Assembly (NCBI GenBank): GCA_001819395.1
Contig: MHMQ01000032.1
Coordinates: 20,150 to 84,149 of the forward strand
Length of the DNA stretch: 64,000 bases
DNA from: Candidatus Niyogibacteria bacterium RIFCSPLOWO2_01_FULL_45_48
GTDB lineage: Bacteria > Patescibacteriota > Minisyncoccia > HO2-45-28
Reading direction: 5' to 3'
Of this stretch, positions 33,633 to 50,998 are shown piece by piece. Within the stretch, counting starts at the first letter, position 1. Each line of letters begins with the position of its first letter. The translations under genes were made by a program, and so were the position numbers. The notes below the pieces were generated by a model. The model saw nothing but the letters and a program-made list of their open reading frames with translations, was not told the DNA's origin and did not search any database.

Positions 33633-33672
33633 CAAGGTTGATTTTTTTAGAAATTGCGTTAAGATAATCAGT

Positions 33673-33837: not shown

Positions 33838-33878
33838 TTTTTGATATTATTATATAGTATTTTTTGCGCCATTTGCGC

Positions 33879-34014: not shown

Positions 34015-34074
34015 AAAATGGTGCAGAAAGCACACGGTTCATAAAGAAGTCAAAATAACGGCTTAGATTTTTTT

Positions 34075-34145
34075 GGGGGTATGGTTCAATGGTAGAACAT
34101 TGGTCTCCAAAACCAAAGATCAGGGTTCGATTCCTTGTACCCCCG
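34075..34145 (+). tRNA. tRNA-Trp (anticodon CCA), copy 1
   Basis: Acceptor GGGGGTA/TACCCCC, D-stem GTTC/GAAC, anticodon stem TTGGT/ACCAA with loop CTCCAAA, T-arm CAGGG-TTCGATT-CCTTG (one G-U). Confidence 0.85.
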
Positions 34146-34193
34146 CATTGAAAATTTTGGCATCTTTTGATGCCTAGAATTTCAAATTTGATA

Positions 34194-34212
34194 GGTACAA
34201 GGAATCGAACCC
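34194..34212. repeat. inverted 19-nt copy of the tRNA-Trp T-arm/acceptor 3' end
   Basis: GGTACAAGGAATCGAACCC is the exact reverse complement of GGGTTCGATTCCTTGTACC in the upstream tRNA; second copy at 34530-34548. Confidence 0.85.
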
Positions 34213-34214
34213 AC

Positions 34215-34350
34215 GAAAGGGGGTCGGGGAAAAGCGGAAGGGTTTCCCCGCGGAGGAAAACAGCCCCGACGCGCGAAGCGGTCGGGGCGCTAGAAACCGA
34301 GGGTTTCTAGGGAGCACGAGCGAATCCCTTGAGGTGAGCGAGCTGCGACG
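34215..34350. repeat. 136-bp GC-rich element, copy 2
   Basis: Exact 336-bp period with copy 1. Confidence 0.9.
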
Positions 34351-34410
34351 AAAATGGTGCAGAAAGCACACGGTTCATAAAGAAGTCAAAATAACGGCTT
34401 AGATTTTTTT

Positions 34411-34481
34411 GGGGGTATGGTTCAATGGTAGAACATTGGTCTCCAAAACCAAAGATCAGGGTTCGATTCCTTGTACCCCCG
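34411..34481 (+). tRNA. tRNA-Trp (anticodon CCA), copy 2, identical to copy 1
   Basis: Same sequence 336 bp downstream. Confidence 0.85.
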
Positions 34482-34529
34482 CATTGAAAATTTTGGCATC
34501 TTTTGATGCCTAGAATTTCAAATTTGATA

Positions 34530-34548
34530 GGTACAAGGAATCGAACCC
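34530..34548. repeat. second inverted tRNA-Trp 3' fragment
   Basis: GGTACAAGGAATCGAACCC. Confidence 0.85.
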
Positions 34549-34550
34549 AC

Positions 34551-34686
34551 GAAAGGGGGTCGGGGAAAAGCGGAAGGGTTTCCCCGCGGAGGAAAACAGC
34601 CCCGACGCGCGAAGCGGTCGGGGCGCTAGAAACCGAGGGTTTCTAGGGAGCACGAGCGAATCCCTTGAGGTGAGCGAGCTGCGACG
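34551..34686. repeat. 136-bp GC-rich element, copy 3
   Basis: Identical to copy 2. Confidence 0.9.
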
Positions 34687-34730
34687 GGTTCGATTCCCTC
34701 AGCTCCCGCAAATTTAGACGGGCGATTTCT
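34687..34730 (+). pseudogene. decayed 3' remnant of a third tRNA-Trp copy
   Basis: GGTTCGATTCCCTCAGCTCCCGCA aligns to the tRNA-Trp T-loop/acceptor (GGGTTCGATTCCTTGTACCCCCGCA) with substitutions that break the stems; a further TATACCCCCGC fragment follows. Confidence 0.5.
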
Positions 34731-34805
34731 TATACCCCCGCTTTACACCAACTGTCTAATCCTTTAGTGTTTTAACAGATAGTTTTTTGATTTGAGGAGA
34801 CGAGC

Positions 34806-35468
34806 GTGAACGAAATCACGAAATTCGGGGCGCGTTATTACGGTCCGGGCTATACTTGGAGCGCCTACAGGGAATTGCAAAACGAATATAACAATTTTGC
34901 GCTTAAAGAAACCGGTAAGCCGTGGTGGGAAGAATTCGCAAAGCGTTTGCGTAGAGGCCACAAAGTCTTGGACTTGGGATGCGGCAGCGGTGTTCCGGCG
35001 CGCTTTCTTTCCGGTCACGGCCTTAGAGTGGTAGGCGTGGATGTTTCTGGAGACATGGTCACGCTTGCGCGGAAACAGGATCCGCAAGGAGTTTTCTTTC
35101 GCGCCGAGATGGATGAAATAAGATGGCCCATGTATAGTTTTGGCGGCGTCTGTTCGTTTTTCTCTTTTTTGCATTTGCCGAAGCGAAGGGTCAAAAAACT
35201 GATAAGAGATATTCATGAGTGGCTGCTCCCCGGAGGAGTTTTTGCGGTAACCATTGTTGAAGGCGAGGGCGAAGGATTATGCGAAAACTTTATGGGCAGG
35301 GGTATCCCTATTTATCTTTCTTACTATAAACAACCGGAGTTTTGTGACATGTTGAGGGTGGCGGGCTTTACTGTTAAGGACACGAAGCGCTTGGAGGTAA
35401 AAACAGATAATTTTGATGAAACGGAGCTGTTCTTTTTAGCTAGTAAAACTGGCACGTTGGGCGAGTGA
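34806..35468 (+). CDS. class I SAM-dependent methyltransferase
   Basis: GTG start after GGAGA; VLDLGCGSGVPARFL motif I, LLPGGVFAV motif III. Confidence 0.75.
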   Translation: MNEITKFGARYYGPGYTWSAYRELQNEYNNFALKETGKPWWEEFAKRLRRGHKVLDLGCGSGVPARFLSGHGLRVVGVDVSGDMVTLARKQDPQGVFFRAEMDEIRWPMYSFGGVCSFFSFLHLPKRRVKKLIRDIHEWLLPGGVFAVTIVEGEGEGLCENFMGRGIPIYLSYYKQPEFCDMLRVAGFTVKDTKRLEVKTDNFDETELFFLASKTGTLGE

Positions 35469-35484
35469 GAAAAAAGAGAAAGGT

Positions 35485-35691
35485 GTGAGTAACTTTGAGG
35501 ACATGATCAATCATCCGTCTCTGCAGCGCGAATTTAGCAGGTTTAGGTCTTTGGGTGGTCAAATAAGAATAGATAACAACAAGATTGTTTTATATTCAAT
35601 GATTATTCCTGAAGATATCACGGAATTATTCGCGCAACGCATTCGCCGTCTTGATGTGGAAAACCTTCTTGAGGTTGTTGTGGAAATTTAG
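35485..35691 (+). CDS. hypothetical small protein
   Basis: 68 aa, GTG start, followed by weak hairpin+T-run terminator. Confidence 0.3.
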   Translation: MSNFEDMINHPSLQREFSRFRSLGGQIRIDNNKIVLYSMIIPEDITELFAQRIRRLDVENLLEVVVEI

Positions 35692-35804
35692 GCGCGAAAC
35701 TCGCCCCCTTTTTGTTTGGCCGCACATGCTTTTCAAATATATTGTTTTATGCAAGTATTCTTTTGGCGAGAGGTGCGCCTCTCAATGCCAGAAAGGAGGA
35801 GGGT

Positions 35805-36437
35805 ATGCCCTTCACCGAAGGACTGGAAGCGTTGATTGGAAAAAAAGGCCGTATTACCGATACAGAGTGGTTGGTCTTGATTGAGGCCAGGCGCAAACTC
35901 ATTAAACCGCACCTTGATTCATTTACTCTTCCGATACTTGGGTCATTAAAATGTTTGCGAAACGAACTTAGTTTTAAACACGAGATTGATTGTGATATTT
36001 CCGTATCCGGTGGGGATCAGCGTTTTTCGCTAAAAACTCAAGGGTTTTTCTGGGCCCAACCTTGGTCTGCTGTGGAAAGGATTTCTAATAGCGGATCTTG
36101 TAATTGGCCCGGCTACGTAGCTTGTCCTGACGGAACTATGCATATCTGGGGCCTTACGCGTTCTGGTTTGTGGGTTCTCGTGACCATTGAATTTGTCGGC
36201 GAATCCGGATATAAAGAGCGTGGCTATGAGCGGGCAAAATCTGTAAAAATTTTTGAAGCCGATTTACGCGCGATCATAGAAAAAACGAAAGAAAATCCAA
36301 GACACATGTGGAGTCATCTCGGCGCGGTTATTAAAAGTTTCGCAGAGCGCCGTAAGTGTCTGTATAACCAAGCTCTTGATCTTGCCCGAATGGTCGAAAT
36401 TGAGGAACTGGCTCTTTCAATTGTTTTGGGGAAGTAA
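35805..36437 (+). CDS. hypothetical protein
   Basis: ATG at 35805 preceded by GGAGGAGGG; 210 aa, Cys-containing, no known motif. Upstream in-frame start at 35712 lacks RBS. Confidence 0.4.
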   Translation: MPFTEGLEALIGKKGRITDTEWLVLIEARRKLIKPHLDSFTLPILGSLKCLRNELSFKHEIDCDISVSGGDQRFSLKTQGFFWAQPWSAVERISNSGSCNWPGYVACPDGTMHIWGLTRSGLWVLVTIEFVGESGYKERGYERAKSVKIFEADLRAIIEKTKENPRHMWSHLGAVIKSFAERRKCLYNQALDLARMVEIEELALSIVLGK

Positions 36438-36449
36438 AAAGGTCAATAT

Positions 36450-36477
36450 AAGGCGCAAAACTCGCGCCTTTTTTATT
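36450..36477 (+). terminator. rho-independent terminator
   Basis: AGGCGC-aaaactc-GCGCCT then TTTTTTATTT; a similar hairpin (GGCGCGAAACTCGCC+T-run) at 35692-35720. Confidence 0.65.
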
Positions 36478-36503
36478 TACTTGGGATTTGATATTTTAAA
36501 TTT

Positions 36504-36860
36504 ATGGAGAACAAAAAACATTTTTACACTTGGAAAAATTTTGAATCGGATGTTAAGAAATTAACATCGGCATTAAAGCACAAAAAATTTGACGGCATCT
36601 GGGGGCCGGCGAGGGGAGGGTTGCCTATCGCGGTCTGCCTTTCGCACGCCCTTGATCTGCCGTTTTTAGAAAAATCAAAAAGCGAAAAAACCTTGATTGT
36701 TGACGACATAGCGGACACCGGAAAAACTCTTGAACCGTTTTTTAAAAAAGGCCATACGATTGCCACAATTTTTTACCATCACCAAAGCAGATTTGAACCT
36801 CACATCTGGCTTCGCGAGAAAAAAGACGAATGGATAGTTTTCCCGTGGGAAAAAACATGA
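36504..36860 (+). CDS. small phosphoribosyltransferase-domain protein (purine PRTase-like)
   Basis: 118 aa; PRPP-binding motif LIVDDIADTGKTL. Confidence 0.65.
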   Translation: MENKKHFYTWKNFESDVKKLTSALKHKKFDGIWGPARGGLPIAVCLSHALDLPFLEKSKSEKTLIVDDIADTGKTLEPFFKKGHTIATIFYHHQSRFEPHIWLREKKDEWIVFPWEKT

Positions 36861-36892
36861 ATTAACAACTGGTAAGTTATGCACACTTATAT

Positions 36893-36920
36893 TTGCTGGT
36901 TTTTTTTTAAGGTTTATAAT
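36893..36920 (+). promoter_or_regulatory. sigma-70-like promoter upstream of guaB
   Basis: TTGCTG - 16 nt - TATAAT. Confidence 0.45.
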
Positions 36921-36935
36921 TGTCAGAGGATGTGC

Positions 36936-36960
36936 AAAACCCCGCGAAGCGGGGTTTTAT
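36936..36960 (+). terminator. leader hairpin/terminator 20 nt upstream of guaB start
   Basis: AAACCCCGC-gaa-GCGGGGTTTT followed by AT; lies inside the predicted guaB leader. Confidence 0.5.
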
Positions 36961-36979
36961 CGTGTCCGGCTAAAAATTT

Positions 36980-38401
36980 ATGAAAGAAGGCCTAACTTTT
37001 GATGATGTCTTATTGACCCCGAAAAAGTCTCGGGTTTTTTCACGTAAAGATGTTTCGCTCAAAACTTTATTTTCAAAAAATATAGAATTATCCGCGCCGA
37101 TTGTTTCAGCCAACATGGACACCGTAACCGAATCGCGGATGGCGAGATTCTTGGCCGAATCCGGCGGGATCGGCATAATTCACCGATTTTTATCTATTGA
37201 ACAGGAGGCCGAAGAAGTAAAAAAAGTAAAAAGAGCCGAAAATATAATTATTGACGATCCGTATACTATTTTGCCTCACCAGACGGTTGCCGAAGCGCGC
37301 ATGCTGATGGGCCATGACGGCGTATCCGGACTTTTGGTAACGGACGAAAAAAAGAGACTCGTTGGCATCGTAACCGCGCGCGATCTTTTATTTGAAAAAG
37401 ACGAAAACCGGAAGATGGGCGAAGTTATGACCAAAAAGGTCATAACCGCGCCGGTTAATATTTCTCCATCTCGCGCCAAAGAAATTTTGCATAAGTATAG
37501 AATTGAAAAACTGCCCCTCGTTTCTAAAAACGGCGTTGTTAAGGGCCTCATTACCTCAAAAGATATTTTGAAAAAAAGTCAGAACCCCATCGCTTCAAAA
37601 GACAAAAGAGGCAGGCTTTTGGTGGGGGCTGCGGTCGGCGTAAAAGAGGACGCGCTGGCGCGAACAAAAGCGCTGCTTGATGCCGGAGCTGACGCGATAG
37701 TTATTGATATTGCCCACGGCCATAATATGCGCGCGCTGGAAATGACAAAAACATTAAAGAAAAAATTTAAAGGAATAGAGCTTGTTGCCGGAAATGTTGC
37801 TACTGCCGAAGGCGCAGTTGATTTGATAAAAGCGGGGGCGGACGCGGTAAAGGTGGGGATTGGGCCGGGGGCCGCGTGTACCACAAGAGTTGTCACTGGA
37901 GTCGGTGTGCCACAGCTTACGGCGATCACAGATTGCGTAAAAGCCGTTTCAAAATTTGATATACCGATCATAGCCGACGGCGGAGTAAAAAATTCGGGAG
38001 ATTTTTCTAAGGCGCTGGCCGCAGGCTCTTCGTCCGTCATGATTGGCAGCTTGTTTGCGGGGACTGACGAGGCCCCCGGCGAATATATCATTGAAGATGG
38101 CGTCGCTTATAAACTTTACCGCGGAATGGCGTCTCGTGACGCGGCAGAGGATAAAAACAAATTGGATGGAATCGACCCTTCGACTGCGCTCGGGGCAAGC
38201 GGTTTTTCAAGGAATCCTGAAGGCAAGGCCGGACGGGTTTCATACCGCGGTTCGGCTAAAAATGTAATAGGTGATTTGGTCGGCGGGCTTCGTTCGTCAA
38301 TGAGCTATCTTGGCGCCAAAAACCTTAAAGAATTCAGCAAGAACACCGAATTTATAAAAATCACCCCCGCCTCTTTCAGAGAAGGCCAAGCGAGGAATTA
38401 A
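36980..38401 (+). CDS. guaB: IMP dehydrogenase
   Basis: 473 aa; tandem CBS insert, catalytic loop GIGPGAACTTR, GGV...G phosphate-binding. Confidence 0.9.
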   Translation: MKEGLTFDDVLLTPKKSRVFSRKDVSLKTLFSKNIELSAPIVSANMDTVTESRMARFLAESGGIGIIHRFLSIEQEAEEVKKVKRAENIIIDDPYTILPHQTVAEARMLMGHDGVSGLLVTDEKKRLVGIVTARDLLFEKDENRKMGEVMTKKVITAPVNISPSRAKEILHKYRIEKLPLVSKNGVVKGLITSKDILKKSQNPIASKDKRGRLLVGAAVGVKEDALARTKALLDAGADAIVIDIAHGHNMRALEMTKTLKKKFKGIELVAGNVATAEGAVDLIKAGADAVKVGIGPGAACTTRVVTGVGVPQLTAITDCVKAVSKFDIPIIADGGVKNSGDFSKALAAGSSSVMIGSLFAGTDEAPGEYIIEDGVAYKLYRGMASRDAAEDKNKLDGIDPSTALGASGFSRNPEGKAGRVSYRGSAKNVIGDLVGGLRSSMSYLGAKNLKEFSKNTEFIKITPASFREGQARN

Positions 38402-38527
38402 ATTTTTTGGGGTTGACACCGGCCATTTTTATACGGCTGGTTTTGTTTTTTGTTTGATTTTTTTGGCTGGCGGTTTATATTCTGGATAGGTTATCCGCCC
38501 GTTGAAAACTGAATAAGGAGAAAAAAG

Positions 38528-39856
38528 ATGACCAAAATTTCCGAATGTCTGAAAAAGAAAATTGGAGAAGAACTTTGGGAAACCTTAAAAAGAATTCGTC
38601 ACGAAAACAAAAAGGGGTTTATTAGAACCCCCGAAGCGAAAGCTGTTTTGTCCCGGCTTGTGGAAATTAATCTGAAGCCGAAAGAATTTGAGGACCTGCT
38701 TGGATACAAGTGGGGAAGTGTCAAAAACGCACTTTCTTATCACCAAATCAAGAAACCAGTTCACAAAGCCGAAGTTGCGGCACACGACATTAATTCCCCC
38801 GAATTTAGCGAAAGATTTTTTAAGTTTGTGCGCAGCAAGACGGTTGTGGAAATGTGCGAGGAATTTAATTTGAGTGACGAACAGGTAAGTACGCTTTTGG
38901 CAAATCCGCCTGCGGAACATGGCATATATAAGGATTCCAGCAGGCACACGGCTACCTACTTCTGTATTTTTAAAGGCAAAAATGTCGAGCCGAAAGATAG
39001 GATTTGGAATTATGTTTTGGCTAAAGACGATGGAGCCGCGGTTGATATCGTGTTTCCGAAAGATATTGGTTGGAAAAAAGAAAGGTCCGGAGATTCGTCT
39101 GAGCGCAGATTGGAAAAAATGCGCATTGTGCCCATGGCCGACATTTGGCTTGGCGACCCTCTTCACGACTCAGCGCTTTTGGACGAGAGAATAGCCTGGA
39201 TTGCCAGAGAGCCGCACATTTTTTGGTTTTTTAACGGAGATGCGATTAAACCCCCGACAGCAAAAGAAATTAAAGACGGCGTGCTGGAAAAACTTTATCT
39301 TGAGTTGAGAACAAAACTTGCGCCGATTTCACACAAGTGGCTTTGGGCGCAAGAAGGGTGTTTTGAGACGAAGTTGCATGCGACCAAAGACGCATTTGAT
39401 CCGATTGACGACCTTTGTGATGAGTGGGATGTGCCATATTTCAGAACTCCGGTTTCCGTCGGCCTTCATTGGGCTGGAAATTTATTTAAGTTTTACTGTA
39501 TTCATGGAAAATCGCAGGCTCAGAAAAAGGGTTCAAAAATCAACGCCATCGCGCGCATCCTTGGTGAAGTGGAATTCAACCATTTTTATGTTATGTCTCA
39601 CATCAAGGATTCGATTTCTAGCAAACAAGTGCGTGTTTCCCAAGACGTGTTGAATTTTGATTTGGCGGAAAAAAAACAATATTTATTCATCACACCCTCT
39701 TTTGTGAAGTACGATCGGTCTCGTGATGCGAAGTGGGGATATCCTCTTCCTGCCAGAGGGCAAGCAAGCTGCGCCTTGTATATAGACGGCGATTATCATT
39801 TTTATTCTTCACCAATAGCCACAGGTCTGGTTGCTGTGGGGGAGGACAACATATGA
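38528..39856 (+). CDS. calcineurin-like metallophosphoesterase paralog with degenerate metal-binding motifs (probable pseudoenzyme) plus unknown N-domain
   Basis: 442 aa; aligns motif-for-motif with next gene: VPMADIWLGD / LVPLSDLQWG, FFNGDAIKP / FLNGDILNN, but GNHE replaced by QEGCFE and GHVHE by SHIKD; RBS AAGGAG 8 nt before ATG. Confidence 0.5.
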   Translation: MTKISECLKKKIGEELWETLKRIRHENKKGFIRTPEAKAVLSRLVEINLKPKEFEDLLGYKWGSVKNALSYHQIKKPVHKAEVAAHDINSPEFSERFFKFVRSKTVVEMCEEFNLSDEQVSTLLANPPAEHGIYKDSSRHTATYFCIFKGKNVEPKDRIWNYVLAKDDGAAVDIVFPKDIGWKKERSGDSSERRLEKMRIVPMADIWLGDPLHDSALLDERIAWIAREPHIFWFFNGDAIKPPTAKEIKDGVLEKLYLELRTKLAPISHKWLWAQEGCFETKLHATKDAFDPIDDLCDEWDVPYFRTPVSVGLHWAGNLFKFYCIHGKSQAQKKGSKINAIARILGEVEFNHFYVMSHIKDSISSKQVRVSQDVLNFDLAEKKQYLFITPSFVKYDRSRDAKWGYPLPARGQASCALYIDGDYHFYSSPIATGLVAVGEDNI

Positions 39857-40890
39857 CCTCGCAAAAATTCACCTTACTTGGAAAAAAATTTGAAGAATTA
39901 ATGAAAAGAGGAATTGTTCCCAAAGAATCTTTACTCAAAGAGTCCGGTTTTTCGGAAGAGCAGATTAAAAAAATGCTTGGCCGCGATGTGGAAGGCGGCC
40001 GCATTTTTGAACAAAGGGTTGAAAAGGAAATTTATTACCGCTTAATCAGAGAAACACCGCCGGTAGTTACTCAGGAGCGCGTTTGGCAATACGCCCAGTG
40101 CGCGGATCGCAGAAAGCCGTATTTCTGGTTTCAATTTCCGAATACCGATTGGAAAAAAATAATTTTGGTTCCTCTTTCCGACCTTCAGTGGGGTTCGGAA
40201 GAATGTGACGTCGCCCAACTTAAAGATTATGTCAAATATATCGGGGAGAATGACCATGTTTTCGCGTTTCTCAACGGAGATATCCTGAATAACGCTTTGC
40301 CGGATTCTCCCGGCGGTTCAATTTTTTGGGATGTGGCGAGACCCCGCGAGCAAGTAAGGACCGTGATTGATTTACTGGCCCCAATCGCTCACAAAATTCT
40401 TTGGGCATTGCCCGGTAATCACGAAGAGCGCACAATCAAGAGGGCAGATATAGATCCTTTGTTCTGGATTTGCCAGAAACTTGGCATTCCTTATTCGGAT
40501 CAGCCAATTTTTGCCGATATTCTTTGGCGGAGCCACCGTTTCAATTTCTATTGTTTTCATGGCATCAGCGGTTCCAGAACTATGGGTGGCAAGTTAAACG
40601 CGGCCATGCGTCCGATTGATTGGACCGAGTTCACGATGTTTTACATAATGGGGCATGTTCATGAACCAATGGGCAACCCTGTTACAAGAAGGTGTGTTCT
40701 TAGGGAGTATGACAGCAAGGGGGGTTTGACCGGCTTGCGGGTTGTTGACAGAGATCAGTATGTGATTATATGCGCGGCTTGGCTGAAGTTTTGGGGAGGT
40801 TACGGCGCAAAGATGGGTTTTTCTCCGCAGTCTCAAGGCGGAACCCCGTGCCTTTTGTATAAAAACGGCGATTACGGAATCTCGGAGTAA
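39853..40890 (+). CDS. calcineurin-like metallophosphoesterase (Mre11/SbcD-type motif set) with ~110-aa N-terminal extension
   Basis: ATG 39853 overlaps previous stop (ATGA), GGAGGA 6 nt upstream; motifs SDLQWG, GDILN, GNHEE, FHGISGS, GHVHEP. Confidence 0.6.
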   Translation: MTSQKFTLLGKKFEELMKRGIVPKESLLKESGFSEEQIKKMLGRDVEGGRIFEQRVEKEIYYRLIRETPPVVTQERVWQYAQCADRRKPYFWFQFPNTDWKKIILVPLSDLQWGSEECDVAQLKDYVKYIGENDHVFAFLNGDILNNALPDSPGGSIFWDVARPREQVRTVIDLLAPIAHKILWALPGNHEERTIKRADIDPLFWICQKLGIPYSDQPIFADILWRSHRFNFYCFHGISGSRTMGGKLNAAMRPIDWTEFTMFYIMGHVHEPMGNPVTRRCVLREYDSKGGLTGLRVVDRDQYVIICAAWLKFWGGYGAKMGFSPQSQGGTPCLLYKNGDYGISE

Positions 40891-40921
40891 GTGTTTTGGT
40901 TAATTTTAAGTTAAATTTTAT

Positions 40922-40957
40922 AATCCCCTCGGCAATTTGTCGGGGGATTTTCTTTTT
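40922..40957 (+). terminator. rho-independent terminator after phosphoesterase gene
   Basis: AATCCCC-13 nt loop-GGGGATT followed by TTCTTTTT. Confidence 0.5.
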
Positions 40958-40996
40958 GGAGGATTTTAGTATAATGAACCAAGACACGACGGTTTT

Positions 40997-43135
40997 TTGA
41001 AAACAAACCCTCGGGAGGCAAAACCCATGGTCGGTAGCGAGAAAAACGGAAATCCGGCCGGGGGCGGTTCTTCCGGCGGGATTCCAGAAATTTTGCGGAT
41101 ATTGCCTGCCAGCATAACCAAAACCGTGGTCTTTCCTCACCGGCTTTTCACGAACCTTTCTTACGCCACAAACAACAAGAAAATGGTCTCCGACCTAAAA
41201 CTGGCCGCAGAAGACGGCCATGCGTTTGTTTTGGTCTCGGTAAACGGCAAGGTGACGGAAATAGGAGTTTTGTGCGAAACAAAGAATTTCAGATTTTTCC
41301 CTAAAAACGGAGTGGTGTCTGTTGATATCAAGCCGCTTAAACGCGTTTACTGCACTGAGATTGTGTTTGCTCCCGATCCGGCTGCCGGGTTTACGCGCGT
41401 GAAGTGGAATTACCGAAACGAAATCGCGGTTAGTCCCGAAAGAGGAGAAGAAAAAAGCTTTGTTGATAAGATGATTGCCCTATGTTTTTCTTTCCATGAG
41501 TTTGAGAGTGCCATTGGCGGATCTCTTAGCGAGTCCGAAGGGAAATATTTTGAAAATGCCAATAGGCTTTTGGGAGAGCTGAACGCGGAAAATTTGTCCG
41601 AAACTCTGGATATAATAATGGCCGTTTTACAAAACGTTTATTGGACTTGGGAAGATTTTGACTTCGGAACCCCGGCATTCATCATATTAAAAGAAGAGAA
41701 TGTTGAAACCAGGTTGGATAGGGTTGTAGAATTGCTGGAGATTATTTTCCATCATGTTATGGATTATGGCTTGCTTGGCGACGACGATGTCTGGAGGACC
41801 GGTTCATTGCCGGAAAGGGCGCTCGTAAAATATGACGCGAAAAAACCGGCTGTAGACACGTCTTTGGCCGAGGTAAATATCCGGGAAGAGCTTGCAAAAC
41901 CGAGAAAAACAACAAAACCTCCCATGATCATTTCGGCTGGCGTTCGCCACGGATCAACGACTTTGCTGGACCACAAGAAACCCGACGCTTTTTCCAAAAA
42001 TGTAGTTGAATTTCTTGACCAGCGCGTTGTTGGTCAGGAGAGGGCGAAGATTCATATGGCCAGAGTGTTTTTGCGCATAAAACTTGGACGAACCGATCCG
42101 CGCCGCCCGTTAATAGGCGGAATCTTTTGCGGTCCGACAGGTGTTGGAAAAACAGAATTGGTTAAGGCCGGCGCCGAATTTATGTTCGGAGATTTTAACG
42201 GTTATACTCACATAGGATGCAATACTTTGCAGGAGCATCATGACGTCAAGTGTCTTGATGGCGCGCCGCCAAGCTACGTTGGCTACAACGACGACACAAT
42301 TTTAGCCCAATGGCGCCTTGATAGGCCGCATTTTCTGTGGCACATGAGCCAAAAGCACGGAGTTAAAATTGGCGATACGAAAAAAGTTTTAAGCGAGCTT
42401 TCATCAAAACACCCGCAGTTTACCGAAAAACAAGTAATGACCGCATCTGGATATAGGCCCGAGGATAAGTACTGGTCAATCGTACTTTTGGATGAGATAG
42501 AACGGGCGCACCCGGCTCTTTACTCGTTTTTGCTGCGAATTTTTGATGACGGAACTCTTGCCTTAAAGAACGGCGAATTCACGGATTTGAAGCGGACTGT
42601 GTTTTTTTTGACATCAAATATTCACGGAAAAGAAATTCTTGAAGAAGGGTCCGGAAAAAATATAGGCTTCCATCAGGCCGGAGAAAACTTGTCCGTAGAG
42701 AAAAGATTCGTGAGCCAGACATGGAAAGAGGTTGTTGGCGCTGTTGTGAAGCACTTTTCTTCAAACCCGGCTTTTTTGGGCAGGATCGGAAAAGAAAACC
42801 TGATTGTCTTTTACCCGCTTGGAGCGAAAGAGCTTTTGCAAATTCTTGAAAATATATATTTGCCGGAATTTACAGAATACATGAAAGAAAAAGCAGGAAT
42901 AGACAAATTTTTTATAACGGATAAGGCAAAAAACCTTGTTATTGCGGAAACAAGAGATCCGACAAGCAGAGTTTTGGGCGCAAGAGCACTTAAGAAGGTT
43001 TTTGAGCGTATGGTTGAAATCCCCGTTTTAAATCTTCTGGCGCGAGCCGAAGAGGGAGACGGGCTGAAAGCAGGCGATCGCGTTTTGGTTGACGCAAAGG
43101 ACGGCGCGATGTTCATTTTTAAGGAAGCAGATTAG
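40997..43135 (+). CDS. orphan single-module Clp/Hsp100 D2-type AAA+ ATPase with unknown ~330-aa N-terminal domain
   Basis: C-terminal ~380 aa align with D2 of the clpB in this window: VVGQERAKIHMARVF...[10 protein letters not shown] (Walker A), PSYVGY pore loop, IVLLDEIERAHP (Walker B), FLTSN sensor-1, C-terminal small domain; ~45-aa insertion between pore loop and Walker B; N-terminal half has no recognisable motif. Internal ATG at 41027 preceded by GGGAGG may be the true start; TATAAT at 40970-40975 upstream. Confidence 0.7.
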   Translation: MKTNPREAKPMVGSEKNGNPAGGGSSGGIPEILRILPASITKTVVFPHRLFTNLSYATNNKKMVSDLKLAAEDGHAFVLVSVNGKVTEIGVLCETKNFRFFPKNGVVSVDIKPLKRVYCTEIVFAPDPAAGFTRVKWNYRNEIAVSPERGEEKSFVDKMIALCFSFHEFESAIGGSLSESEGKYFENANRLLGELNAENLSETLDIIMAVLQNVYWTWEDFDFGTPAFIILKEENVETRLDRVVELLEIIFHHVMDYGLLGDDDVWRTGSLPERALVKYDAKKPAVDTSLAEVNIREELAKPRKTTKPPMIISAGVRHGSTTLLDHKKPDAFSKNVVEFLDQRVVGQERAKIHMARVFLRIKLGRTDPRRPLIGGIFCGPTGVGKTELVKAGAEFMFGDFNGYTHIGCNTLQEHHDVKCLDGAPPSYVGYNDDTILAQWRLDRPHFLWHMSQKHGVKIGDTKKVLSELSSKHPQFTEKQVMTASGYRPEDKYWSIVLLDEIERAHPALYSFLLRIFDDGTLALKNGEFTDLKRTVFFLTSNIHGKEILEEGSGKNIGFHQAGENLSVEKRFVSQTWKEVVGAVVKHFSSNPAFLGRIGKENLIVFYPLGAKELLQILENIYLPEFTEYMKEKAGIDKFFITDKAKNLVIAETRDPTSRVLGARALKKVFERMVEIPVLNLLARAEEGDGLKAGDRVLVDAKDGAMFIFKEAD

Positions 43136-43138
43136 CTA

Positions 43139-43168
43139 AACAGGGCTCGTTCGGAGCCCTGTTTTTTG
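43139..43168 (+). terminator. rho-independent terminator after AAA+ gene
   Basis: AACAGGGCTC-gttcg-GAGCCCTGTT then TTTTTTG. Confidence 0.75.
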
Positions 43169-43183
43169 CTAGACTTCGTTTAT

Positions 43184-43816
43184 ATGAATCCGTTGCCGGC
43201 TTATTTGCAACGAACAGGTGTTTTAAAAGCAGGCCCGATTTTAGAGTCGTTTGGAGCGATTGACCGCGCCGATTTTGTTCCGGAAGAACTGAAATCAAGA
43301 GCTTATGCCGACGAGGCTTTGCCGATTGGCGGAGGGCAGACGATATCACAGCCTTACACCGTTGCTTTTATGTTAAATTTGCTTGATCCGAGGCGTGGAG
43401 AAAAAATCATGGATGTTGGAGCGGGTTCCGGCTGGCAGACGGCCCTTTTGGCGCATGTTGTGGGTAATACCGGCAAAGTTTTTGCCATTGAGCGCGTGCC
43501 GGAACTTTGTGAGTTTGGCCGCGTAAATGTTTCTAAATATAATTTTATCGCGAGCGGTGTTGTTGAATGGTTTTGTCAGGACGCGACATCGGGGCTTCCG
43601 GACAAAGCCCCGATGGACAAAATAATAGCGGCGGCTAGCATTGTGGATCTAAAAGTCCCGAAAGCGTGGGAAGAACAACTAAAAGTCGGCGGGAAAATGG
43701 TGGTACCAATAGGAAATTCAATTTGGCTTTTTATCAAACAGCCCGACGGAACATTTCACGAGAAAGAATTTCCTGGTTTTATTTTCGTGCCCTTTATTAA
43801 AAATGACAGAACTTGA
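43184..43816 (+). CDS. pcm: protein-L-isoaspartate O-methyltransferase
   Basis: GQTISQPYTVAFML, MDVGAGSGWQTALLA SAM motif; ATG 43184 preferred because upstream TTG (43166) lies in the terminator T-run. Confidence 0.8.
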   Translation: MNPLPAYLQRTGVLKAGPILESFGAIDRADFVPEELKSRAYADEALPIGGGQTISQPYTVAFMLNLLDPRRGEKIMDVGAGSGWQTALLAHVVGNTGKVFAIERVPELCEFGRVNVSKYNFIASGVVEWFCQDATSGLPDKAPMDKIIAAASIVDLKVPKAWEEQLKVGGKMVVPIGNSIWLFIKQPDGTFHEKEFPGFIFVPFIKNDRT

Positions 43817-44762
43817 TTTAAAAATAAAAAAACTGGCAATACTCACCGGCGCGATTTTGTTTGTTGTTTCCCTTGTCGCGCACTCTATTTTTTCCGTTCC
43901 GTCCGGCTTCGGCAAAAATCGTCTAGTTAATATAAAACAGGGGAGGGGCTTGAGTGAGATTGCGGATAGTTTGGAAAAAGACGGTGTTATAAAATCGCCA
44001 TTTATTTTTAAGGCGCTGACCTTTTTATTTTTGGAACATAAAAACATAAAAGCTGGGGATTATTTTTTTGAAGAGCCGTTGTCTGCTTTTGGGGTTGTAA
44101 AAAGATTAACGCGAGGCGTTTACGGACTTTCTCCAACGAGAGCGACGGTTTTGGAGGGCTGGACGGCTTGGCAAATGGGCGGGTATTTTGAAGAGCTTGG
44201 ATTTTTTTCGCGTGAAAAATGGACAGAATCCGCCGAGGACAAAGAAGGATATCTGTTCCCGGACACATATTTTTTTCTGCCGAATACCGGGGTTAAAAGG
44301 GTAATTGAAATAATGCGGGAAAATTTTAATGCAAAGGTTTCGCCTTTGCTGGCCGATATTGAGAGTGCGGGGCGAAGTTTTGAGGATATTGTTGTGATAG
44401 CTTCCATAATAGAAAAAGAAGCAAGCGATTTTGAAGACGCGAAAATAATTTCCGGAATTTTATGGAAGCGGCTTGATGCCGGAATGGGACTTCAGGTGGA
44501 CGCGGCTTTGACTTACGTCACGGGAAAGTCCTCCATGGAACTTACCGAAAAAGATTTAGCAATTGATTCGCCTTATAACACCTACAAATACCGCGGTCTT
44601 CCGCCGACACCTATAGGAAACCCGGGTTTAGACGCGATTAAGGCCGCCGTATATCCCGAAGAAACTTTGTATTGGTATTATCTGCACGGTCGTGACGGGG
44701 AGCCCAGATACGCCGTTGACTTTGAGGAACATAAAGAAAACAAGCAAAAATATTTGCGTTGA
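43803..44762 (+). CDS. mltG: endolytic murein transglycosylase MltG (YceG-like)
   Basis: N-terminal TM anchor; YceG signatures IASIIEKEA, GLQVDAALTYV, YNTYKYRGLPPTPIGNPG. Confidence 0.85.
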   Translation: MTELDLKIKKLAILTGAILFVVSLVAHSIFSVPSGFGKNRLVNIKQGRGLSEIADSLEKDGVIKSPFIFKALTFLFLEHKNIKAGDYFFEEPLSAFGVVKRLTRGVYGLSPTRATVLEGWTAWQMGGYFEELGFFSREKWTESAEDKEGYLFPDTYFFLPNTGVKRVIEIMRENFNAKVSPLLADIESAGRSFEDIVVIASIIEKEASDFEDAKIISGILWKRLDAGMGLQVDAALTYVTGKSSMELTEKDLAIDSPYNTYKYRGLPPTPIGNPGLDAIKAAVYPEETLYWYYLHGRDGEPRYAVDFEEHKENKQKYLR

Positions 44763-44817
44763 TTTATTTTTGTATACATAGTATCTTTTGAAAAGATTTC
44801 TTTAAAGGAGATACGCC

Positions 44818-45588
44818 ATGCGCTGGCTGAAGGATATGCGCGTCTGGCTTTTTGCCGCGACTTTTTTGACCGTTTCTTTTGCCGGAGCTTCTTTTTCGGG
44901 TCTTATGGATTTTCACAGACCGTTAAGTATTTTTTACGGAATGCCTTTTGCTGTTTCTTTGCTCGTGATTTTGCTTGCGCACGAAATGGGGCACTACGTC
45001 GCGGCCAGAAGATGGGGCGTGGAAGTGGATGGACCGTATTTCATACCCTTTCCGTTTTTTCTCGGCACCTTCGGGGCGTTTATAAGGGTAAAAAGTCCTA
45101 TTCCGAATCGGATTGCTCTTTGTGATATCGGCGCTGCCGGCCCTTGGGCCGGAATGGGAACGGCCGTCGCGATTCTTTTTTTAGTTTATCCGCTTCGTTT
45201 AGAACTTGGGGATTTTGCGGCTAATCAGGTCAGGCTCGCTATTTTGGTTGGTTTCATTGTTACTCTTGTTAATCTTCTTCCGAGCGGTTCGCTTGACGGC
45301 GGTCATTTGGCTTATGCCTTTTTTGGGAATTTGAATCAGCGTATTGTCGGGCTTGTGATGTTTTTCTCCTCTTTGCTTACGATGGTATTTGTGGTCTTTT
45401 TCAATTCCGCGATAAGTCCTCTGGTCTTTTTTATTCTTTATATTGTTGGTGGCGGCACGATACATCCCCCTACCGAAAATGATTTATTGCCGTTAGATTG
45501 GAAGAGAAAGGTTGTGGTTATAATTACCCTTATTATTTACGCAGTTCTTCTTTACGGCTCAACCCTTGTGAGGTTTGGTTCAAAGTAA
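44818..45588 (+). CDS. membrane metalloprotease, site-2 protease (M50)-like
   Basis: Polytopic; intramembrane LAHEMGHYVAARRWG HExxH motif and downstream LDGG. Confidence 0.55.
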   Translation: MRWLKDMRVWLFAATFLTVSFAGASFSGLMDFHRPLSIFYGMPFAVSLLVILLAHEMGHYVAARRWGVEVDGPYFIPFPFFLGTFGAFIRVKSPIPNRIALCDIGAAGPWAGMGTAVAILFLVYPLRLELGDFAANQVRLAILVGFIVTLVNLLPSGSLDGGHLAYAFFGNLNQRIVGLVMFFSSLLTMVFVVFFNSAISPLVFFILYIVGGGTIHPPTENDLLPLDWKRKVVVIITLIIYAVLLYGSTLVRFGSK

Positions 45589-45661
45589 ACAAATTCGCTT
45601 GGAATTTCCAAGCGAATTTTGATTTTTAATGAGGTTTTTGTTATATTTCGTAATATCCAAC

Positions 45662-46768
45662 ATGAAAAGTCAAGTTAAAAAGCCGAAGGTCTTCGTGGCC
45701 ATGTCTGGAGGAGTGGACTCGTCTGTTGCGGCCGCTTTGCTTAAAAAGGGCGGTGAATTCAGTGTGGTCGGATGTTATATGAAATGCTGGTCGGCTTGGG
45801 ATCAGTGCTCGGTTGAGCGCGATGCCGAAGACGCGAGGGCTGTTGCGGAAAAATTAGATATACCCTTTTATATTTTTGATTTTGAGAAAGAGTATCGCGA
45901 GCGAGTTTTTAATTACATGGTTAGAGAATATGCCGCAGGGCGCACGCCTAACCCCGATGTGCTTTGCAACTCGGAAATTAAATTCGGAATTTTTTTGGAG
46001 AAAGCGCTGGCCCTAGGCGCAGATTTTGTGGCAACGGGGCATTATGTGAGAGCCTCCGAAAGCTTTTCAGAACAGAACGCCGTCTCGCTTTGTCAGGCCG
46101 TGGACCAAAATAAAGACCAAAGTTATTTTTTGTGGCGTCTTACGCAAAAACAGCTTAAACATGTTTTGTTTCCGATAGGGGATTATTTAAAACCCGAAGT
46201 TCGCGAAATGGCGCGCGAGTTTGGATTGCCGACTGCGGATAAAAAAGATTCGCAGGGGCTTTGTTTTGTGGGAAAAGTGCCGTTTGACGAATTTTTACGC
46301 GATATTTTACCAAAAAATCCCGGGCCGATTATGACTACTTCCGGAAAGGTGATAGGCGATCATGACGGCCTTTCGTTTTACACTTTGGGTCAGCGCCACG
46401 GCATTAAAATAGGCGGAGGGACGCCCTATTATGTCGCGTCAAAAGAATTTCAGACCAACACTTTGGTTGTGGCCGAAGGAAATAAAGACGAGATACTTTT
46501 TAAAAAAGAAATTGAAGTCTCGGACATAAATTGGATTGGAGGCGCCCAACCAAAATTTCCTTTAAAATGCAAAGCGCGCATCCGTTACCGCCAGCCTCTT
46601 CAAAAATGCGCCGTATTCCCACTTGGACATCGGATGTCCAAGTTAAGGGTTGTGTTTGATGAACCGCAAAAAGCCGCAACCCCGGGCCAGTCGGCTGTAT
46701 TTTACGTGCCCGCCAAAGCTTTAGTGAAGGAGGGTGGAGAACTTCTGGGTGGAGGGGTAATGGTGTAA
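45662..46768 (+). CDS. mnmA: tRNA-specific 2-thiouridylase MnmA
   Basis: PP-loop VAMSGGVDSSV; catalytic Cys context; ATG 45662 (in-frame upstream start at 45629 adds only a hydrophobic leader). Confidence 0.85.
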   Translation: MKSQVKKPKVFVAMSGGVDSSVAAALLKKGGEFSVVGCYMKCWSAWDQCSVERDAEDARAVAEKLDIPFYIFDFEKEYRERVFNYMVREYAAGRTPNPDVLCNSEIKFGIFLEKALALGADFVATGHYVRASESFSEQNAVSLCQAVDQNKDQSYFLWRLTQKQLKHVLFPIGDYLKPEVREMAREFGLPTADKKDSQGLCFVGKVPFDEFLRDILPKNPGPIMTTSGKVIGDHDGLSFYTLGQRHGIKIGGGTPYYVASKEFQTNTLVVAEGNKDEILFKKEIEVSDINWIGGAQPKFPLKCKARIRYRQPLQKCAVFPLGHRMSKLRVVFDEPQKAATPGQSAVFYVPAKALVKEGGELLGGGVMV

Positions 46769-46801
46769 GAGACCAAAAAATTTGTTAAAATAAAATTACA
46801 G

Positions 46802-48532
46802 ATGATTTCTCAAGAAATAAGAGAAAAGTTTTTGGAATTTTTTAAAAAGAAGGGACACGCGGTTGTGCCTTCTTCTTCGCTTATTCCAGACGACCCGTCG
46901 GTGCTTTTTACGACCGCCGGAATGCAGCAATTCAAGCCGTATTACACCGGCGATGCCGATGCCATGCGCGATTTTGGCTCGTTAAACACAGCTTCAATCC
47001 AAAAATGTCTTCGCACATCTGATATTGATGAGGTTGGCGACGAGTCCCACCTGACATTTTTTGAAATGTTGGGGAATTTTTCTTTCGGCGGGTATTTCAA
47101 AAAAGAGGCGATAGAATGGGGCCATGAATTTATAACCAAAGAGATGGGATTGAAAATTGATTATGTTTCTGTTTTTGGGGGCGAGGGAAATATTCCAAAG
47201 GATACGGAGTCAGAAAAAATATGGAAGTCAATTGACCCGAAAATAAAAATAAAATACGCAGGCCGCGCTGATAACTTTTGGGGTCCGACGGGGGAGGAAG
47301 GCCCATGCGGGCCGACAACCGAAATTTATGTAAACGGGCTAGAAATTTGGAACATAGTTTTTAACGAATTTTATTGCAAGAAGGGGGGAAAACTAGAACC
47401 GCTTAAAACTCCTGGCATAGACACCGGAATGGGCCTTGAGCGTTTGGCGATGGTCAGCCAAGAAAAAAGCAATATTTTTGAAACTGATTTGTTTAAACCA
47501 CACATGTCTGTTTTGCCGGAAGAGCTTCCGGAAAGAATCGCGAGAATAATCGGAGATCACTCTAGGGCCTCGGTATTTTTACTTACTGACGGAGTTCGGC
47601 CCTCAAACAAAGAACAGGGTTATGTTCTTCGCCGGCTTATGAGGCGGATGCTTGTTTACGAAAATTTGCATGGAATATCCCGGCACATTTTTGACGAAGT
47701 TCTTTTTGTGATTGCTAAAACTTACGGCGCGGACTATCCTGAACTTTTGAGCAAAAAAGAAGAAATACGCGGAGAATTTTCCGAGGAACGCGAAAGATTT
47801 TCGGCCACGCTTAAAAAGGGTATTCGCGAACTTGAACGGAGGGCCAAAACCGGCTCGATCAACGCCAAAGTCGCATTTGACCTCTACCAGACCTTCGGAA
47901 TTCCGTACGAAATTGTGAAAGAGTTAGGCGGCGAATCGGCAGACAAACTTACTCGCGAAGACTTTGACAAGGAATTTGCTAAGCACCAAGAAATTTCAAA
48001 AGCGGGACAGGAAAAAAAATTCGGAGGGCACGGGTTGATTTTGGATACCGGAGAACTAAAGGCGGGAAGCGAGGAAGAATTAAAGAGGGTTACAAGGCTT
48101 CATACCGCGACCCACCTTTTGCAGGCGGCTTTACGCGAAGTTTTGGGCCCCGAGGTGCGTCAGATGGGCTCGGATATCACGCCCGAACGCACGCGCTTTG
48201 ATTTTTCGTTTAACCGCAAACTGACGCCGGAAGAATTAAAAAAAATATCGGAATTGGTCAACGGCATGATAAAGGCCGATCTAAGTGTTAAAATGAAAGA
48301 GATGGATTACGAAGACGCTGTTAAGTCCGGGGCATTATCTTTTTTTAAGCATAAATACCCCAAAAGAGTGAAGGTTTATAGCGTTGGAGAAGAAGGTGAA
48401 GAGGTTTCCAAAGAATTTTGCGGAGGACCGCACGTTTCCAATACGGGCGAAATAGGGAAACTGTCCATCGTCAAAGAAGAGGCGGTGGCGGCCGGCGTGC
48501 GCCGGATAAGAGCAAAAGTAGAGAACAACTGA
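46802..48532 (+). CDS. alaS: alanyl-tRNA synthetase, short form lacking the C-terminal C-Ala domain
   Basis: 576 aa; class II catalytic core (FTTAGMQQFKPYYTG), editing-domain HxxxH (HTATHLLQAAL) and CGGPHV; ends directly after editing domain. Confidence 0.85.
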   Translation: MISQEIREKFLEFFKKKGHAVVPSSSLIPDDPSVLFTTAGMQQFKPYYTGDADAMRDFGSLNTASIQKCLRTSDIDEVGDESHLTFFEMLGNFSFGGYFKKEAIEWGHEFITKEMGLKIDYVSVFGGEGNIPKDTESEKIWKSIDPKIKIKYAGRADNFWGPTGEEGPCGPTTEIYVNGLEIWNIVFNEFYCKKGGKLEPLKTPGIDTGMGLERLAMVSQEKSNIFETDLFKPHMSVLPEELPERIARIIGDHSRASVFLLTDGVRPSNKEQGYVLRRLMRRMLVYENLHGISRHIFDEVLFVIAKTYGADYPELLSKKEEIRGEFSEERERFSATLKKGIRELERRAKTGSINAKVAFDLYQTFGIPYEIVKELGGESADKLTREDFDKEFAKHQEISKAGQEKKFGGHGLILDTGELKAGSEEELKRVTRLHTATHLLQAALREVLGPEVRQMGSDITPERTRFDFSFNRKLTPEELKKISELVNGMIKADLSVKMKEMDYEDAVKSGALSFFKHKYPKRVKVYSVGEEGEEVSKEFCGGPHVSNTGEIGKLSIVKEEAVAAGVRRIRAKVENN

Positions 48533-49671
48533 TGAAAAGAAAACTTATTTTTGATATAGGAAGCTCGCGGGTTAACGGCGCTTTAGTCGTTTTTAACCGA
48601 AAGAAGGAAGCGAGCATAGAAAGAGTTTTTCAATCCGAAAGCATAATTTTACCGGAAACGGATTTACATAGGCTGTGGAAAAAAATGGCTTTGCTGATTG
48701 ACGGGATGGTTAAAGATTTTAAGGACAGTGCTCTTGCGGTCGATGAGGCCCTGGTCGTGTTTTCGTCGCCGTGGTATTTTTCCGAAATACGTGAAATCAA
48801 AAAGGATTTTGGCGAACCGGTTGCGATTACCGGAGACTTTATAGAAAAACTTTTAACCGAGGATGCCGAAAACTTCAAAAAACACTATACGGATAACTTT
48901 AATCTCGGCGTCGGGGATCTGATGCACGCGAGTTCCCGTATTATGAGCGCAAAACTTAACGATTATCCGATTTTAGAGCCGTTAAAAAATATGCCGGATA
49001 AAAAAACCCAGACAATCTCCGCGTTTGTTTATGCCTCGGCAGTATTCGGCGAAGCGGCCGCCCGTATAAAAATGGCTCTGGAAGACTGCGGTGTAAAATC
49101 CGTCGAGTTTCAGAGTTCGCCATTTGTTTTTTTGAAAGTTTTTTTGAAAGAGGGTTTGGGCGACCTTCTGGTTGTGGATATCGGGGGAGAGATAACAGAT
49201 GTTATAGTAATTAAGGGCGGAAAAATATTTAAAATGGCCTCTTTTGGACGCGGCCTTAATTATGCCGCAAGGCGCCTCGGTCCGTCTTTTAAGGTTGGTC
49301 TGGACGAGGTTATGGCGCTTCTTTCGAATTATATTGAAGGAAAGCTTGAAAAATCATTCCAAGAATCCGTGGCCCAAGCGCTGAAAGACGCTTTAACGGA
49401 GTGGCAGAGCCTGCTGAAAGAAGCCCTGGAAAAACATATTTTTCCGGATCTCGTACCCCAAAAAGTTTTTGTAACCGGACACGGCGGAGGCGTTGCCGAA
49501 TTCAAAAAAGCCCTGAATCTGCCGGATTCGGCAAAATTTACCGAACATGGCCGGCCGTTCGAGATTTTCGAAAGCAAGCCGGCTATATCCCATTTTAAAA
49601 ACGCCTCCTATGTTTTAAACAAACCGCATTTGTCTTTAATAGGGCTTTATTCAACATATGCCATCCAATAA
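48532..49671 (+). CDS. actin-like ATPase-fold protein (FtsA/PilM-like)
   Basis: ATG overlaps alaS stop (TGATG); LIFDIGSSRVNGALV and LVVDIGGEITDVIVI phosphate-binding loops of ASKHA/actin fold. Confidence 0.45.
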   Translation: MKRKLIFDIGSSRVNGALVVFNRKKEASIERVFQSESIILPETDLHRLWKKMALLIDGMVKDFKDSALAVDEALVVFSSPWYFSEIREIKKDFGEPVAITGDFIEKLLTEDAENFKKHYTDNFNLGVGDLMHASSRIMSAKLNDYPILEPLKNMPDKKTQTISAFVYASAVFGEAAARIKMALEDCGVKSVEFQSSPFVFLKVFLKEGLGDLLVVDIGGEITDVIVIKGGKIFKMASFGRGLNYAARRLGPSFKVGLDEVMALLSNYIEGKLEKSFQESVAQALKDALTEWQSLLKEALEKHIFPDLVPQKVFVTGHGGGVAEFKKALNLPDSAKFTEHGRPFEIFESKPAISHFKNASYVLNKPHLSLIGLYSTYAIQ

Positions 49672-50947: not shown

Positions 50948-50949
50948 CC

Positions 50950-50977: not shown

Positions 50978-50998
50978 AAGATTGTATTTGTATTTTTA

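Follow-up and report, generated by a model that had tools for sequence, protein, structure and literature searches.

Introduction

AAA+ proteases are usually treated as fixed families (Lon, ClpXP, ClpAP/CP, HslUV and FtsH), each with recognition domains of its own. A flexible [L/I/V]-G-[F/L] loop past sensor-1 docks ClpX, ClpA and ClpC onto ClpP and marks the unfoldases that partner ClpP, ClpE included. Grafting of such a loop onto ClpB, as in the BAP variant, reportedly suffices for ClpP binding, and PDB entry 4d2q, which was among the PDB matches, is a BAP-type complex. Skd3 (human CLPB), in which a single D2-type ring is combined with a foreign N-terminal domain, can act as an autonomous disaggregase. 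Here, a gene of the ultra-small groundwater bacterium Candidatus Niyogibacteria bacterium RIFCSPLOWO2_01_FULL_45_48, a member of the Candidate Phyla Radiation (CPR), was analysed, the product of which is a natural Lon/Clp hybrid and, judging by its motifs, a single-ring unfolding motor (hereafter the chimera). The gene lies in a 64,000-nucleotide (nt) stretch (contig MHMQ01000032.1, positions 20,150 to 84,149), referred to as the window. The nearest paper compares the domain structures of LonA and ClpB (PMC6722904), and no published description of a Lon-N/Clp-D2 architecture was found in the literature searched.

With the second module of ClpC, ClpA and ClpB (ClpABC-CTD, HCLR clade), the chimera shared the AAA_2 fold, Walker A and Walker B, a GYVG-type pore-1 loop, TSN, the Arg finger, GAR and, probably, the D2-small domain, and with ClpC and ClpA additionally a hydrophobic-Gly-Phe loop past sensor-1. 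Unlike class I Hsp100 proteins, it had one AAA+ module and no Clp_N, D1 or M-domain. It further differed from ClpC and ClpB by a family insertion of 47–83 amino acids (aa) before Walker B and by GRIGKE in place of NRID/E. With LonA it shared the Lon N domain and, as judged from a related contig (L008), the genomic slot, but the Lon AAA+ module, Lon_lid, coiled-coil helix and Ser-Lys protease were missing and a Clp D2 was present instead. No match to Lon_lid, PF05362 (Lon_C) or TIGR00763 was detected in the chimera, PF00004 was matched with an E value of 0.036 only, and the protein ended with the probable D2-small domain.

Likeness to three single-ring proteins was also noted. HslU (ClpY) is a single-ring unfoldase with an extra domain between pore-1 and Walker B and works with a separate protease, but the insertion of the chimera family was much smaller (47–83 vs ~130 aa) and had no detected sequence similarity to that of HslU. 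ClpX, likewise an HCLR ATPase of one ring, recognises substrates through its N-terminal domain and binds ClpP by an IGF loop, whereas the chimera had no zinc-binding N domain and its module was of the D2 type with a probable D2-small lid. Skd3 carries a single ClpB-NBD2-type ring on a non-Clp N-terminal substrate-binding domain; it is, however, eukaryotic and mitochondrial, contains ankyrin repeats and has no pre-Walker-B insertion, whereas the chimera had Lon-N and no ankyrin match. By homology, the mode of action of the chimera would be that of a ClpX- or ClpC-type unfoldase, or else that of Skd3. Curated models placed it outside ClpB, ClpA, ClpX, HslU and LonA, with scores of 159 bits vs a cut-off of 1232 for ClpB (TIGR03346), 105 vs 993 for ClpA (TIGR02639), 25.5 vs 359 for ClpX and 15.6 vs 362.45 for HslU (TIGR00390), ClpV being far under its cut-off as well.

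Results

The gene and its product

41027..43135, + strand: gene of the Lon-N/Clp-D2 chimeric AAA+ ATPase, 702 aa (start assigned by ribosome-binding site and database copies)

The open reading frame (ORF) 40997..43135 (+) was intact and would encode 712 aa if read from the TTG at 40997. The true gene most likely spans 41027..43135, because a GGGAGG ribosome-binding site was located 7 nt 5' of the ATG at 41027 and the public copies of the protein (P0001/P0134) are 702 aa long. Residue numbers refer to the 702-aa protein unless given as ORF residues, which refer to the 712-aa ORF. Cluster members OGZ29785.1, OGZ31626.1 and OGZ30588.1 are labelled 'hypothetical protein', and the UniRef entry A0A1G2F0I6 is named 'ATPase AAA-type core domain-containing protein'. 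The AlphaFold2 model of the full-length chimera had a predicted local distance difference test (pLDDT) score of 77.8. The domain identities and their homology, a Lon N domain followed by a Clp-D2 module, are assigned with high confidence.

A Lon N domain makes up the N-terminal region

41084..41416, + strand: Lon N-terminal domain, beta-rich (PUA-like) lobe (aa 20-130)
41435..41767, + strand: Lon N-terminal domain, helical lobe (aa 137-247), aligning with the N regions of true LonA
41768..41986, + strand: acidic linker of low confidence (aa 248-320), pLDDT <50 over much of its length (alignments A3 and A4)

An earlier reading made from the DNA letters and their translations (the sequence-only reading) described an orphan Hsp100-D2 protein with a novel N-terminal domain. 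The fold comparison identified the N region as a Lon N domain, modelled by AlphaFold2 with a pLDDT of 70–90 across aa 20-247. In the single-sequence Pfam scan, a weak LON_substr_bdg (PF02190) match covered ORF residues 43-247 with an E value of 0.009, under its cut-off. A sequence profile search of the PDB with the N region returned chance-level matches only, and genome and metagenome scans seeded by an alignment of three N regions found no relatives.

A profile of the N regions of relatives P0001–P0003 (A2) was then searched exhaustively against 1.84e9 cluster representatives (E<=1e-3) and 14 matching proteins were obtained, ten of which were scanned with Pfam and NCBIfam. Four of these (P0122, P0123, P0124 and P0131) had the architecture of the chimera with a split AAA_2, followed by D2-small in all except P0122, which was C-terminally truncated. 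Two (P0121 and P0125) consisted of the N domain alone (~330 aa). The remaining four (P0126–P0129) were true LonA proteins, each carrying AAA, Lon_lid and Lon_C, and the profile covered their first ~290 residues; the divergent N domain is shared by them and the chimera family, since the canonical lon model covered these proteins only from about residue 250 onward. Outside the ten scanned, P0132 (866 aa) and P0133 (825 aa) matched the profile at their N-termini. The N-terminal domain is thus a known one in a new combination and its novelty was not upheld.

The alignment with LonA N regions showed that Lon homology stops past the helical lobe, at about aa 247. The acidic, disordered linker, in which a PRK(x)3-4PP motif (nt 41888-41926) was kept among the closest relatives, stands in for the Lon coiled-coil helix and likely marks the fusion junction. 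The Pfam scan and the fold comparison found no Clp_N (PF02861), AAA domain, P-loop or AAA_lid_9 in ORF residues 1-330, in agreement with the earlier statement that the first 330 aa contain neither a Clp N-domain nor D1. A cryptic, diverged D1 in the N half was also considered and ruled out by the lack of a P-loop and by the Lon-N fold.

The ATPase module is of the ClpB/ClpC D2 type

41987..42328, + strand: first part of the AAA+ large subdomain, with Walker A GPTGVGKT at 42131-42154 and the pore-1 loop PPSYVGY within 42257-42289
42470..42619, + strand: Walker B to sensor-1, with VLLDEIE within 42470-42502 and TSN within 42605-42619
42773..42799, + strand: Arg-finger region FLGRIGKEN, with the signature GRIGKE[NK] replacing NRID/E of ClpB/C
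42818..43132, + strand: probable D2-small (lid) domain, containing GAR of sensor-2 (within 42974-42988) and, at the C terminus, a beta-hairpin

AAA_2 (PF07724) was matched with 96.8 bits (cut-off 27), the match being divided into two stretches by the insertion. D2 chains of ClpC and ClpB in the PDB matched ORF residues 335-437 and 491-706 with E values of 1e-35 to 1e-39. These AAA_2 and D2 matches are far beyond chance. ClpB_D2-small (PF10431) scored 16.7 bits in the chimera, under the cut-off of 21.9, and 24.5–39.6 bits in homologues. NCBIfam gave partial D2-region matches to ClpB, ClpV, ClpA, ClpK and ClpG, all far under the cut-offs. In Foldseek, the top matches were ClpC:ClpP complexes and crystal structures of ClpB NBD2 (TM 0.81, lid included), and Skd3 chains were also among the structural matches.

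In an alignment of eight family members and ten ClpC/ClpB D2 sequences (A3), Walker A, Walker B, Y417 (pore-1), N531 (sensor-1), R586 (Arg finger) and GAR 651-653 (sensor-2) were invariant or nearly so, as they also were in alignment A1, and the C-terminal residues varied across the chimera family. All D2 motifs quoted in the sequence-only reading (GPTGVGKT, PPSYVGY, LLDEIE, TSN and a C-terminal D2-small-like domain) were found again, and the Pfam and PDB matches bore out its view of a single Hsp100-D2 AAA+ module. Its description of the module as ClpB-like held insofar as ClpB D2 was matched, but the resemblance to ClpC was equal, given the IGF of the ClpP-loop type.

A helical insertion precedes Walker B

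42329..42469, + strand: family-specific helical insertion of 47 residues (aa 435-481), preceded by the helix that follows the pore-1 loop and succeeded by the Walker B strand

The spacing between the pore-1 loop and Walker B was 65–100 aa in 20 relatives, whereas the ClpC and ClpB sequences aligned in A3 have about 16 aa there. The 'about 45 extra residues' noticed earlier between these motifs thus amounted to 47 in the alignment of the family with ClpC and ClpB. An insertion of 47–83 aa was kept in every one of the ~20 relatives, so that it is not noise of a single lineage. Among the closest relatives its flanks were conserved (SQWR-x-D-[KR]-PHFL … GY-x-P-E-x-KY), while the middle varied in length and was coiled-coil-like in the longer versions. 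Short helices were modelled by AlphaFold2 in this region at residues 428-444, 448-461 and 467-473. In HslU, the I domain comprises residues 110-243 (PMC4703411). By linear motif order, the insertion occupies the topological site of this I domain. It is predicted to lie around the pore entrance, and a role as a specificity element, as put forward in the sequence-only reading, is plausible.

A ClpP-type loop follows sensor-1

42647..42694, + strand: flexible loop GSGKNIGFHQAGENLS (aa 541-556), with IGF at 42662-42670 (aa 546-548), aligning with the ClpP-docking [I/L/V]GF loop of ClpC

The IGF of the chimera aligned with VGF of Bacillus subtilis ClpC in the PDB alignment and with IGF, LGF or FGF in the ClpC rows of A3, in which the ClpB rows had no such motif. 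The pLDDT of the loop was <50 at aa 544-554, as expected of a flexible docking loop. Within the family the tripeptide read IGF, IGI, MGF, FGF or VGF and, once, PGF; [I/V/M/F]-G-[F/I] was kept in 14 of the 15 members whose loop was extracted by a regular expression, PGF being the exception. SGIGF was found in two further ORFs with the D2 module only, and the loop of E. coli ClpX reads the same. Among loop-bearing members, D2 identity was 31–57%.

Distribution of the family

A word-indexed protein search found only three full-length relatives (P0001–P0003) and P0004, which had the D2 module only. Further members were recruited with a degenerate DNA pattern for [GA]R[IV]GKE[NK]xxV[FC]. In 185,579 GTDB species genomes this pattern retrieved four true relatives, one of them a Patescibacteria metagenome-assembled genome (MAG) with the full architecture and the others D2-only, from Yanofskybacteria and two Saccharibacteria-labelled MAGs. 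Metagenome contigs yielded ten true relatives, eight of them from groundwater small-cell fractions. Besides the Niyogibacteria assemblies that encode OGZ29785.1, OGZ31626.1 and OGZ30588.1, GCA_964412115.1 and JBBTVC01 are carriers of the gene. All organism-labelled family members belonged to CPR/Patescibacteria, the metagenome and Logan contigs being unlabelled. The protein is therefore no orphan, as had been supposed, and belongs to a rare CPR family of about 20 relatives.

The D2-only relatives from other CPR genomes were 404–470 aa long (L025 4913..6325; L011 4268..5581, - strand; L020 1633..2940, - strand; L002 1509..2723). Some had a longer coiled-coil insertion, with a spacing of 71–100 aa vs 65 in the window protein. 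GRIGKE was present in all four, and the loop read SGIGF in L025 and L011, PGF in L020 and FGF in L002/P0004. These proteins may form a separate, CPR-specific family of single-ring Clp ATPases. The L002 gene overlapped an unrelated 333-aa ORF by 4 nt; by eye this ORF had seemed Lon-N-like, an impression for which BLASTP and two hhalign runs gave no support.

Genomic neighbourhood and origin

43166..43816, + strand: PCMT (protein-L-isoaspartate O-methyltransferase), downstream neighbour of the chimera gene, found likewise in related loci L003, L005, L008, L020, L042 and L050

The chimera gene was located in a syntenic slot (IMPDH – large upstream protein(s) – chimera – (PCMT) – YceG – M50 – MnmA – AlaRS) in the window and in L001, L003, L004, L021 and L057. 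At the equivalent place in L008, with IMPDH on one side and a PCMT::YceG fusion on the other, lies a true LonA of 868 aa whose N domain is of the family type. Only a 341-aa Lon-N-like protein occupies the slot in the complete genome of Zambryskibacteria, CP066691.1 (L005), and D2-only relatives were neighbours of holA, UvrA or SecG. Because the slot holds LonA in L008 and the N domain alone in Zambryskibacteria, and because D2-only relatives stand elsewhere, the synteny suggests that the chimera gene arose at the Lon locus of an ancestral CPR bacterium, where a single-D2 ATPase of CPR origin displaced the ATPase and protease of Lon in situ.

Several observations on these loci may be added. The fused PCMT and YceG (MltG) gene of L008 (11047..12858) is downstream of LonA and encodes 603 aa; in the window, PCMT (43166..43816) and YceG (43803..44762) are separate, overlapping genes. 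The stand-alone Lon-N-like proteins of L005 (8001..9026, 341 aa) and L007 (4567..5535, 322 aa), both encoded in the syntenic slot, have a Lys/Glu-rich tail and neither ATPase nor protease, and upstream of their genes a 944- or 959-aa protein without a family match is encoded. In the window (1..64000), nearly all long ORFs were on the + strand and GC skew was positive throughout. The window was rich in protein-quality-control genes, with an HtrA-like protease (28516..29778), ClpB, DnaK (57970..59856), PCMT and SOD (26587..27213).

Discussion

Mode of action and the question of ClpP

We give even chances to the reading in which the chimera is a Lon whose ATPase–protease body has been swapped for a Clp D2 ring, with substrates passed to ClpP. 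The chimera would form a hexameric ring, on the entry face of which the Lon N domains and the helical insertion would together select and hold substrates. The Tyr pore loops would thread the chain through the ring, driven by ATP, and at its exit face the ring would dock, through the flexible [I/V/M/F]-G-[F/I] loops, onto ClpP, which would degrade the chain in trans. In this manner the task of Lon, whether quality control of proteins or their regulated degradation, would be carried out with Clp parts. Taken by itself, ClpP docking through the IGF-type loop with degradation in trans is proposed tentatively, at somewhat below even chances. It is doubtful whether one may go further and define a CPR-restricted class of ClpP-activating unfoldases that replaced LonA in situ, turning a cis-protease into a two-component Clp protease with an I-domain-like gate.

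Four points weigh against the Lon-with-a-Clp-ring reading. That a hexamer forms, that the insertion lies at the pore entrance and that the protein has any of these activities is drawn from homology. For the change from Lon to chimera, direction and mechanism are read from the synteny of a few contigs. A ClpP was detected neither in the 64-kb window nor in the related loci (~437 kb), which weighs little for genomes of ~1 Mb. In the window and all loci, ClpP, ClpX and Lon were searched by tblastn with E. coli sequences as queries, and only the expected Lon and AAA+ matches were obtained. In TM7x, another CPR bacterium, clpP is present. The fourth point concerns the ClpB of the window, which carries LGF at the loop position, so that the tripeptide is possibly an unreliable sign of ClpP docking in this lineage.

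29802..32480, + strand: ClpB of the window, 892 aa, TIGR03346 1225.6 bits, just under the cut-off of 1232.1

In this ClpB (29802..32480), the docking-loop position is filled by a segment absent from ordinary ClpB rows, and from its sequence the protein may be a ClpB/ClpC intermediate able to dock ClpP.

The main rival is a protease-free, Skd3-like unfoldase, which we consider rather unlikely. The chimera would then be a protease-independent unfoldase or disaggregase like ClpB NBD2 or Skd3, its Lon N domain binding damaged proteins and releasing them for refolding or repair, for example by PCMT, with the IGF-type loop inherited and put to another use. Skd3 offers the precedent for a single-ring autonomous disaggregase, and the Skd3 chains among the structural matches, the lack of ClpP in the window and related loci, the LGF of the window ClpB and the conserved downstream position of the protein-repair enzyme PCMT all fit this explanation. 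It is harder to reconcile with the slot holding a protease (LonA) in the relative L008, and with the tripeptide being kept at D2 identities of ~31–38% while its flanks vary. Selection on a docking function is indicated by this conservation of the tripeptide amid varying flanks.

The upstream phosphoesterase pair

38528..39856 and 39853..40890, + strand: two paralogous metallophosphoesterase-like genes with an ATGA stop/start overlap
40926..40956, + strand: terminator-like hairpin with a T-run, in the gap that separates the pair from the ATPase gene (stem of 9 pairs, of which 6 are GC; best-scoring site of the region)

A link between the ATPase and this pair had been hinted at in the sequence-only reading. 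In its strongest form, the ATPase would remodel, load or regulate a phosphoesterase nuclease/phosphatase complex in DNA repair or anti-phage defence, which is clearly unlikely. The two paralogues were 26% identical (E 1e-35); the first was without GNHE and GHxH and the second retained GDILNN, GNHE and GHVH. The two genes are translationally coupled, and the motif loss suggests a heterodimer of a dead and a live member. The pair lies directly upstream of the chimera gene in the window, L003 and L021, and the slot of L004 holds a single 747-aa protein with a Pfam-supported phosphoesterase. Both genes of the pair matched the phage family phrog_7339 'DNA repair exonuclease', and PADLOC gave a partial DolB (Dodola) match on the AAA core, the best stretch being profile positions 231-286 of 375.

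The functional link is nevertheless rated as weak, because a terminator-like hairpin separates the pair from the ATPase gene and the neighbours differ in relatives. No BLAST or hhalign link was found among the pair, the family of 714-, 901- and 708-aa proteins upstream in L001, L008 and L057, and the 944-aa protein of L005, which is different again. The upstream protein of the L001/L057 type also accompanies the true LonA of L008, where its 901-aa member was 44% identical over ~700 aa to the protein upstream of the chimera P0002. Beside D2-only relatives stand holA, UvrA or SecG, PADLOC had no match in the neighbouring genes and hence no DolA neighbour, and the region is syntenic housekeeping DNA of uniform composition. 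PCMT is at least as constant a neighbour as the phosphoesterase pair.

The proteins of L001 (1102..3246), L008 (3329..6034) and L057 (1979..4105) formed one family of 700–900 aa with 38–45% identity and metallophosphoesterase-like GD…G, GNHD and H motifs but no Pfam or PHROG match, always encoded upstream of a Lon or chimera gene. A single phosphoesterase family embracing all upstream neighbours was considered and dropped, as no BLAST or hhalign connection was seen. A mobile defence island was excluded by the uniform composition and the conserved housekeeping synteny.

Two further explanations are highly improbable. A truly novel N-terminal domain on an orphan Hsp100-D2 protein would agree with the domain being barely visible to single-sequence tools (PF02190, PDB profile search), but not with the outcome of the fold comparison and the exhaustive profile search or with the existence of ~20 relatives. 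A decaying, functionless remnant of a rearranged Lon or Clp gene would agree with the N domain surviving alone in the Zambryskibacteria slot, but the gene has an unbroken reading frame, members down to 31% identity keep every ATPase motif, the architecture is kept across several CPR lineages, and neither frameshifts nor motif loss were seen.

Meaning of the Lon/Clp combination

The finding is of interest mainly for specialists in AAA+ proteins and CPR bacteria, as known domains are newly combined and no new category is created. By joining a Lon N domain to a Clp D2 ring, the chimera would show AAA+ protease modules to be exchangeable in evolution, a case strengthened by the HslU-like insertion site, the ClpX/ClpC-like ClpP loop and the position at the Lon locus. 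Even if it does not dock ClpP, it would still be a bacterial counterpart of the single-ring disaggregase Skd3. It would offer a ready test of the share of the Lon N domain in substrate choice, apart from the Lon motor and protease, and would bear on how protein quality control is organised in the very small genomes of CPR bacteria.

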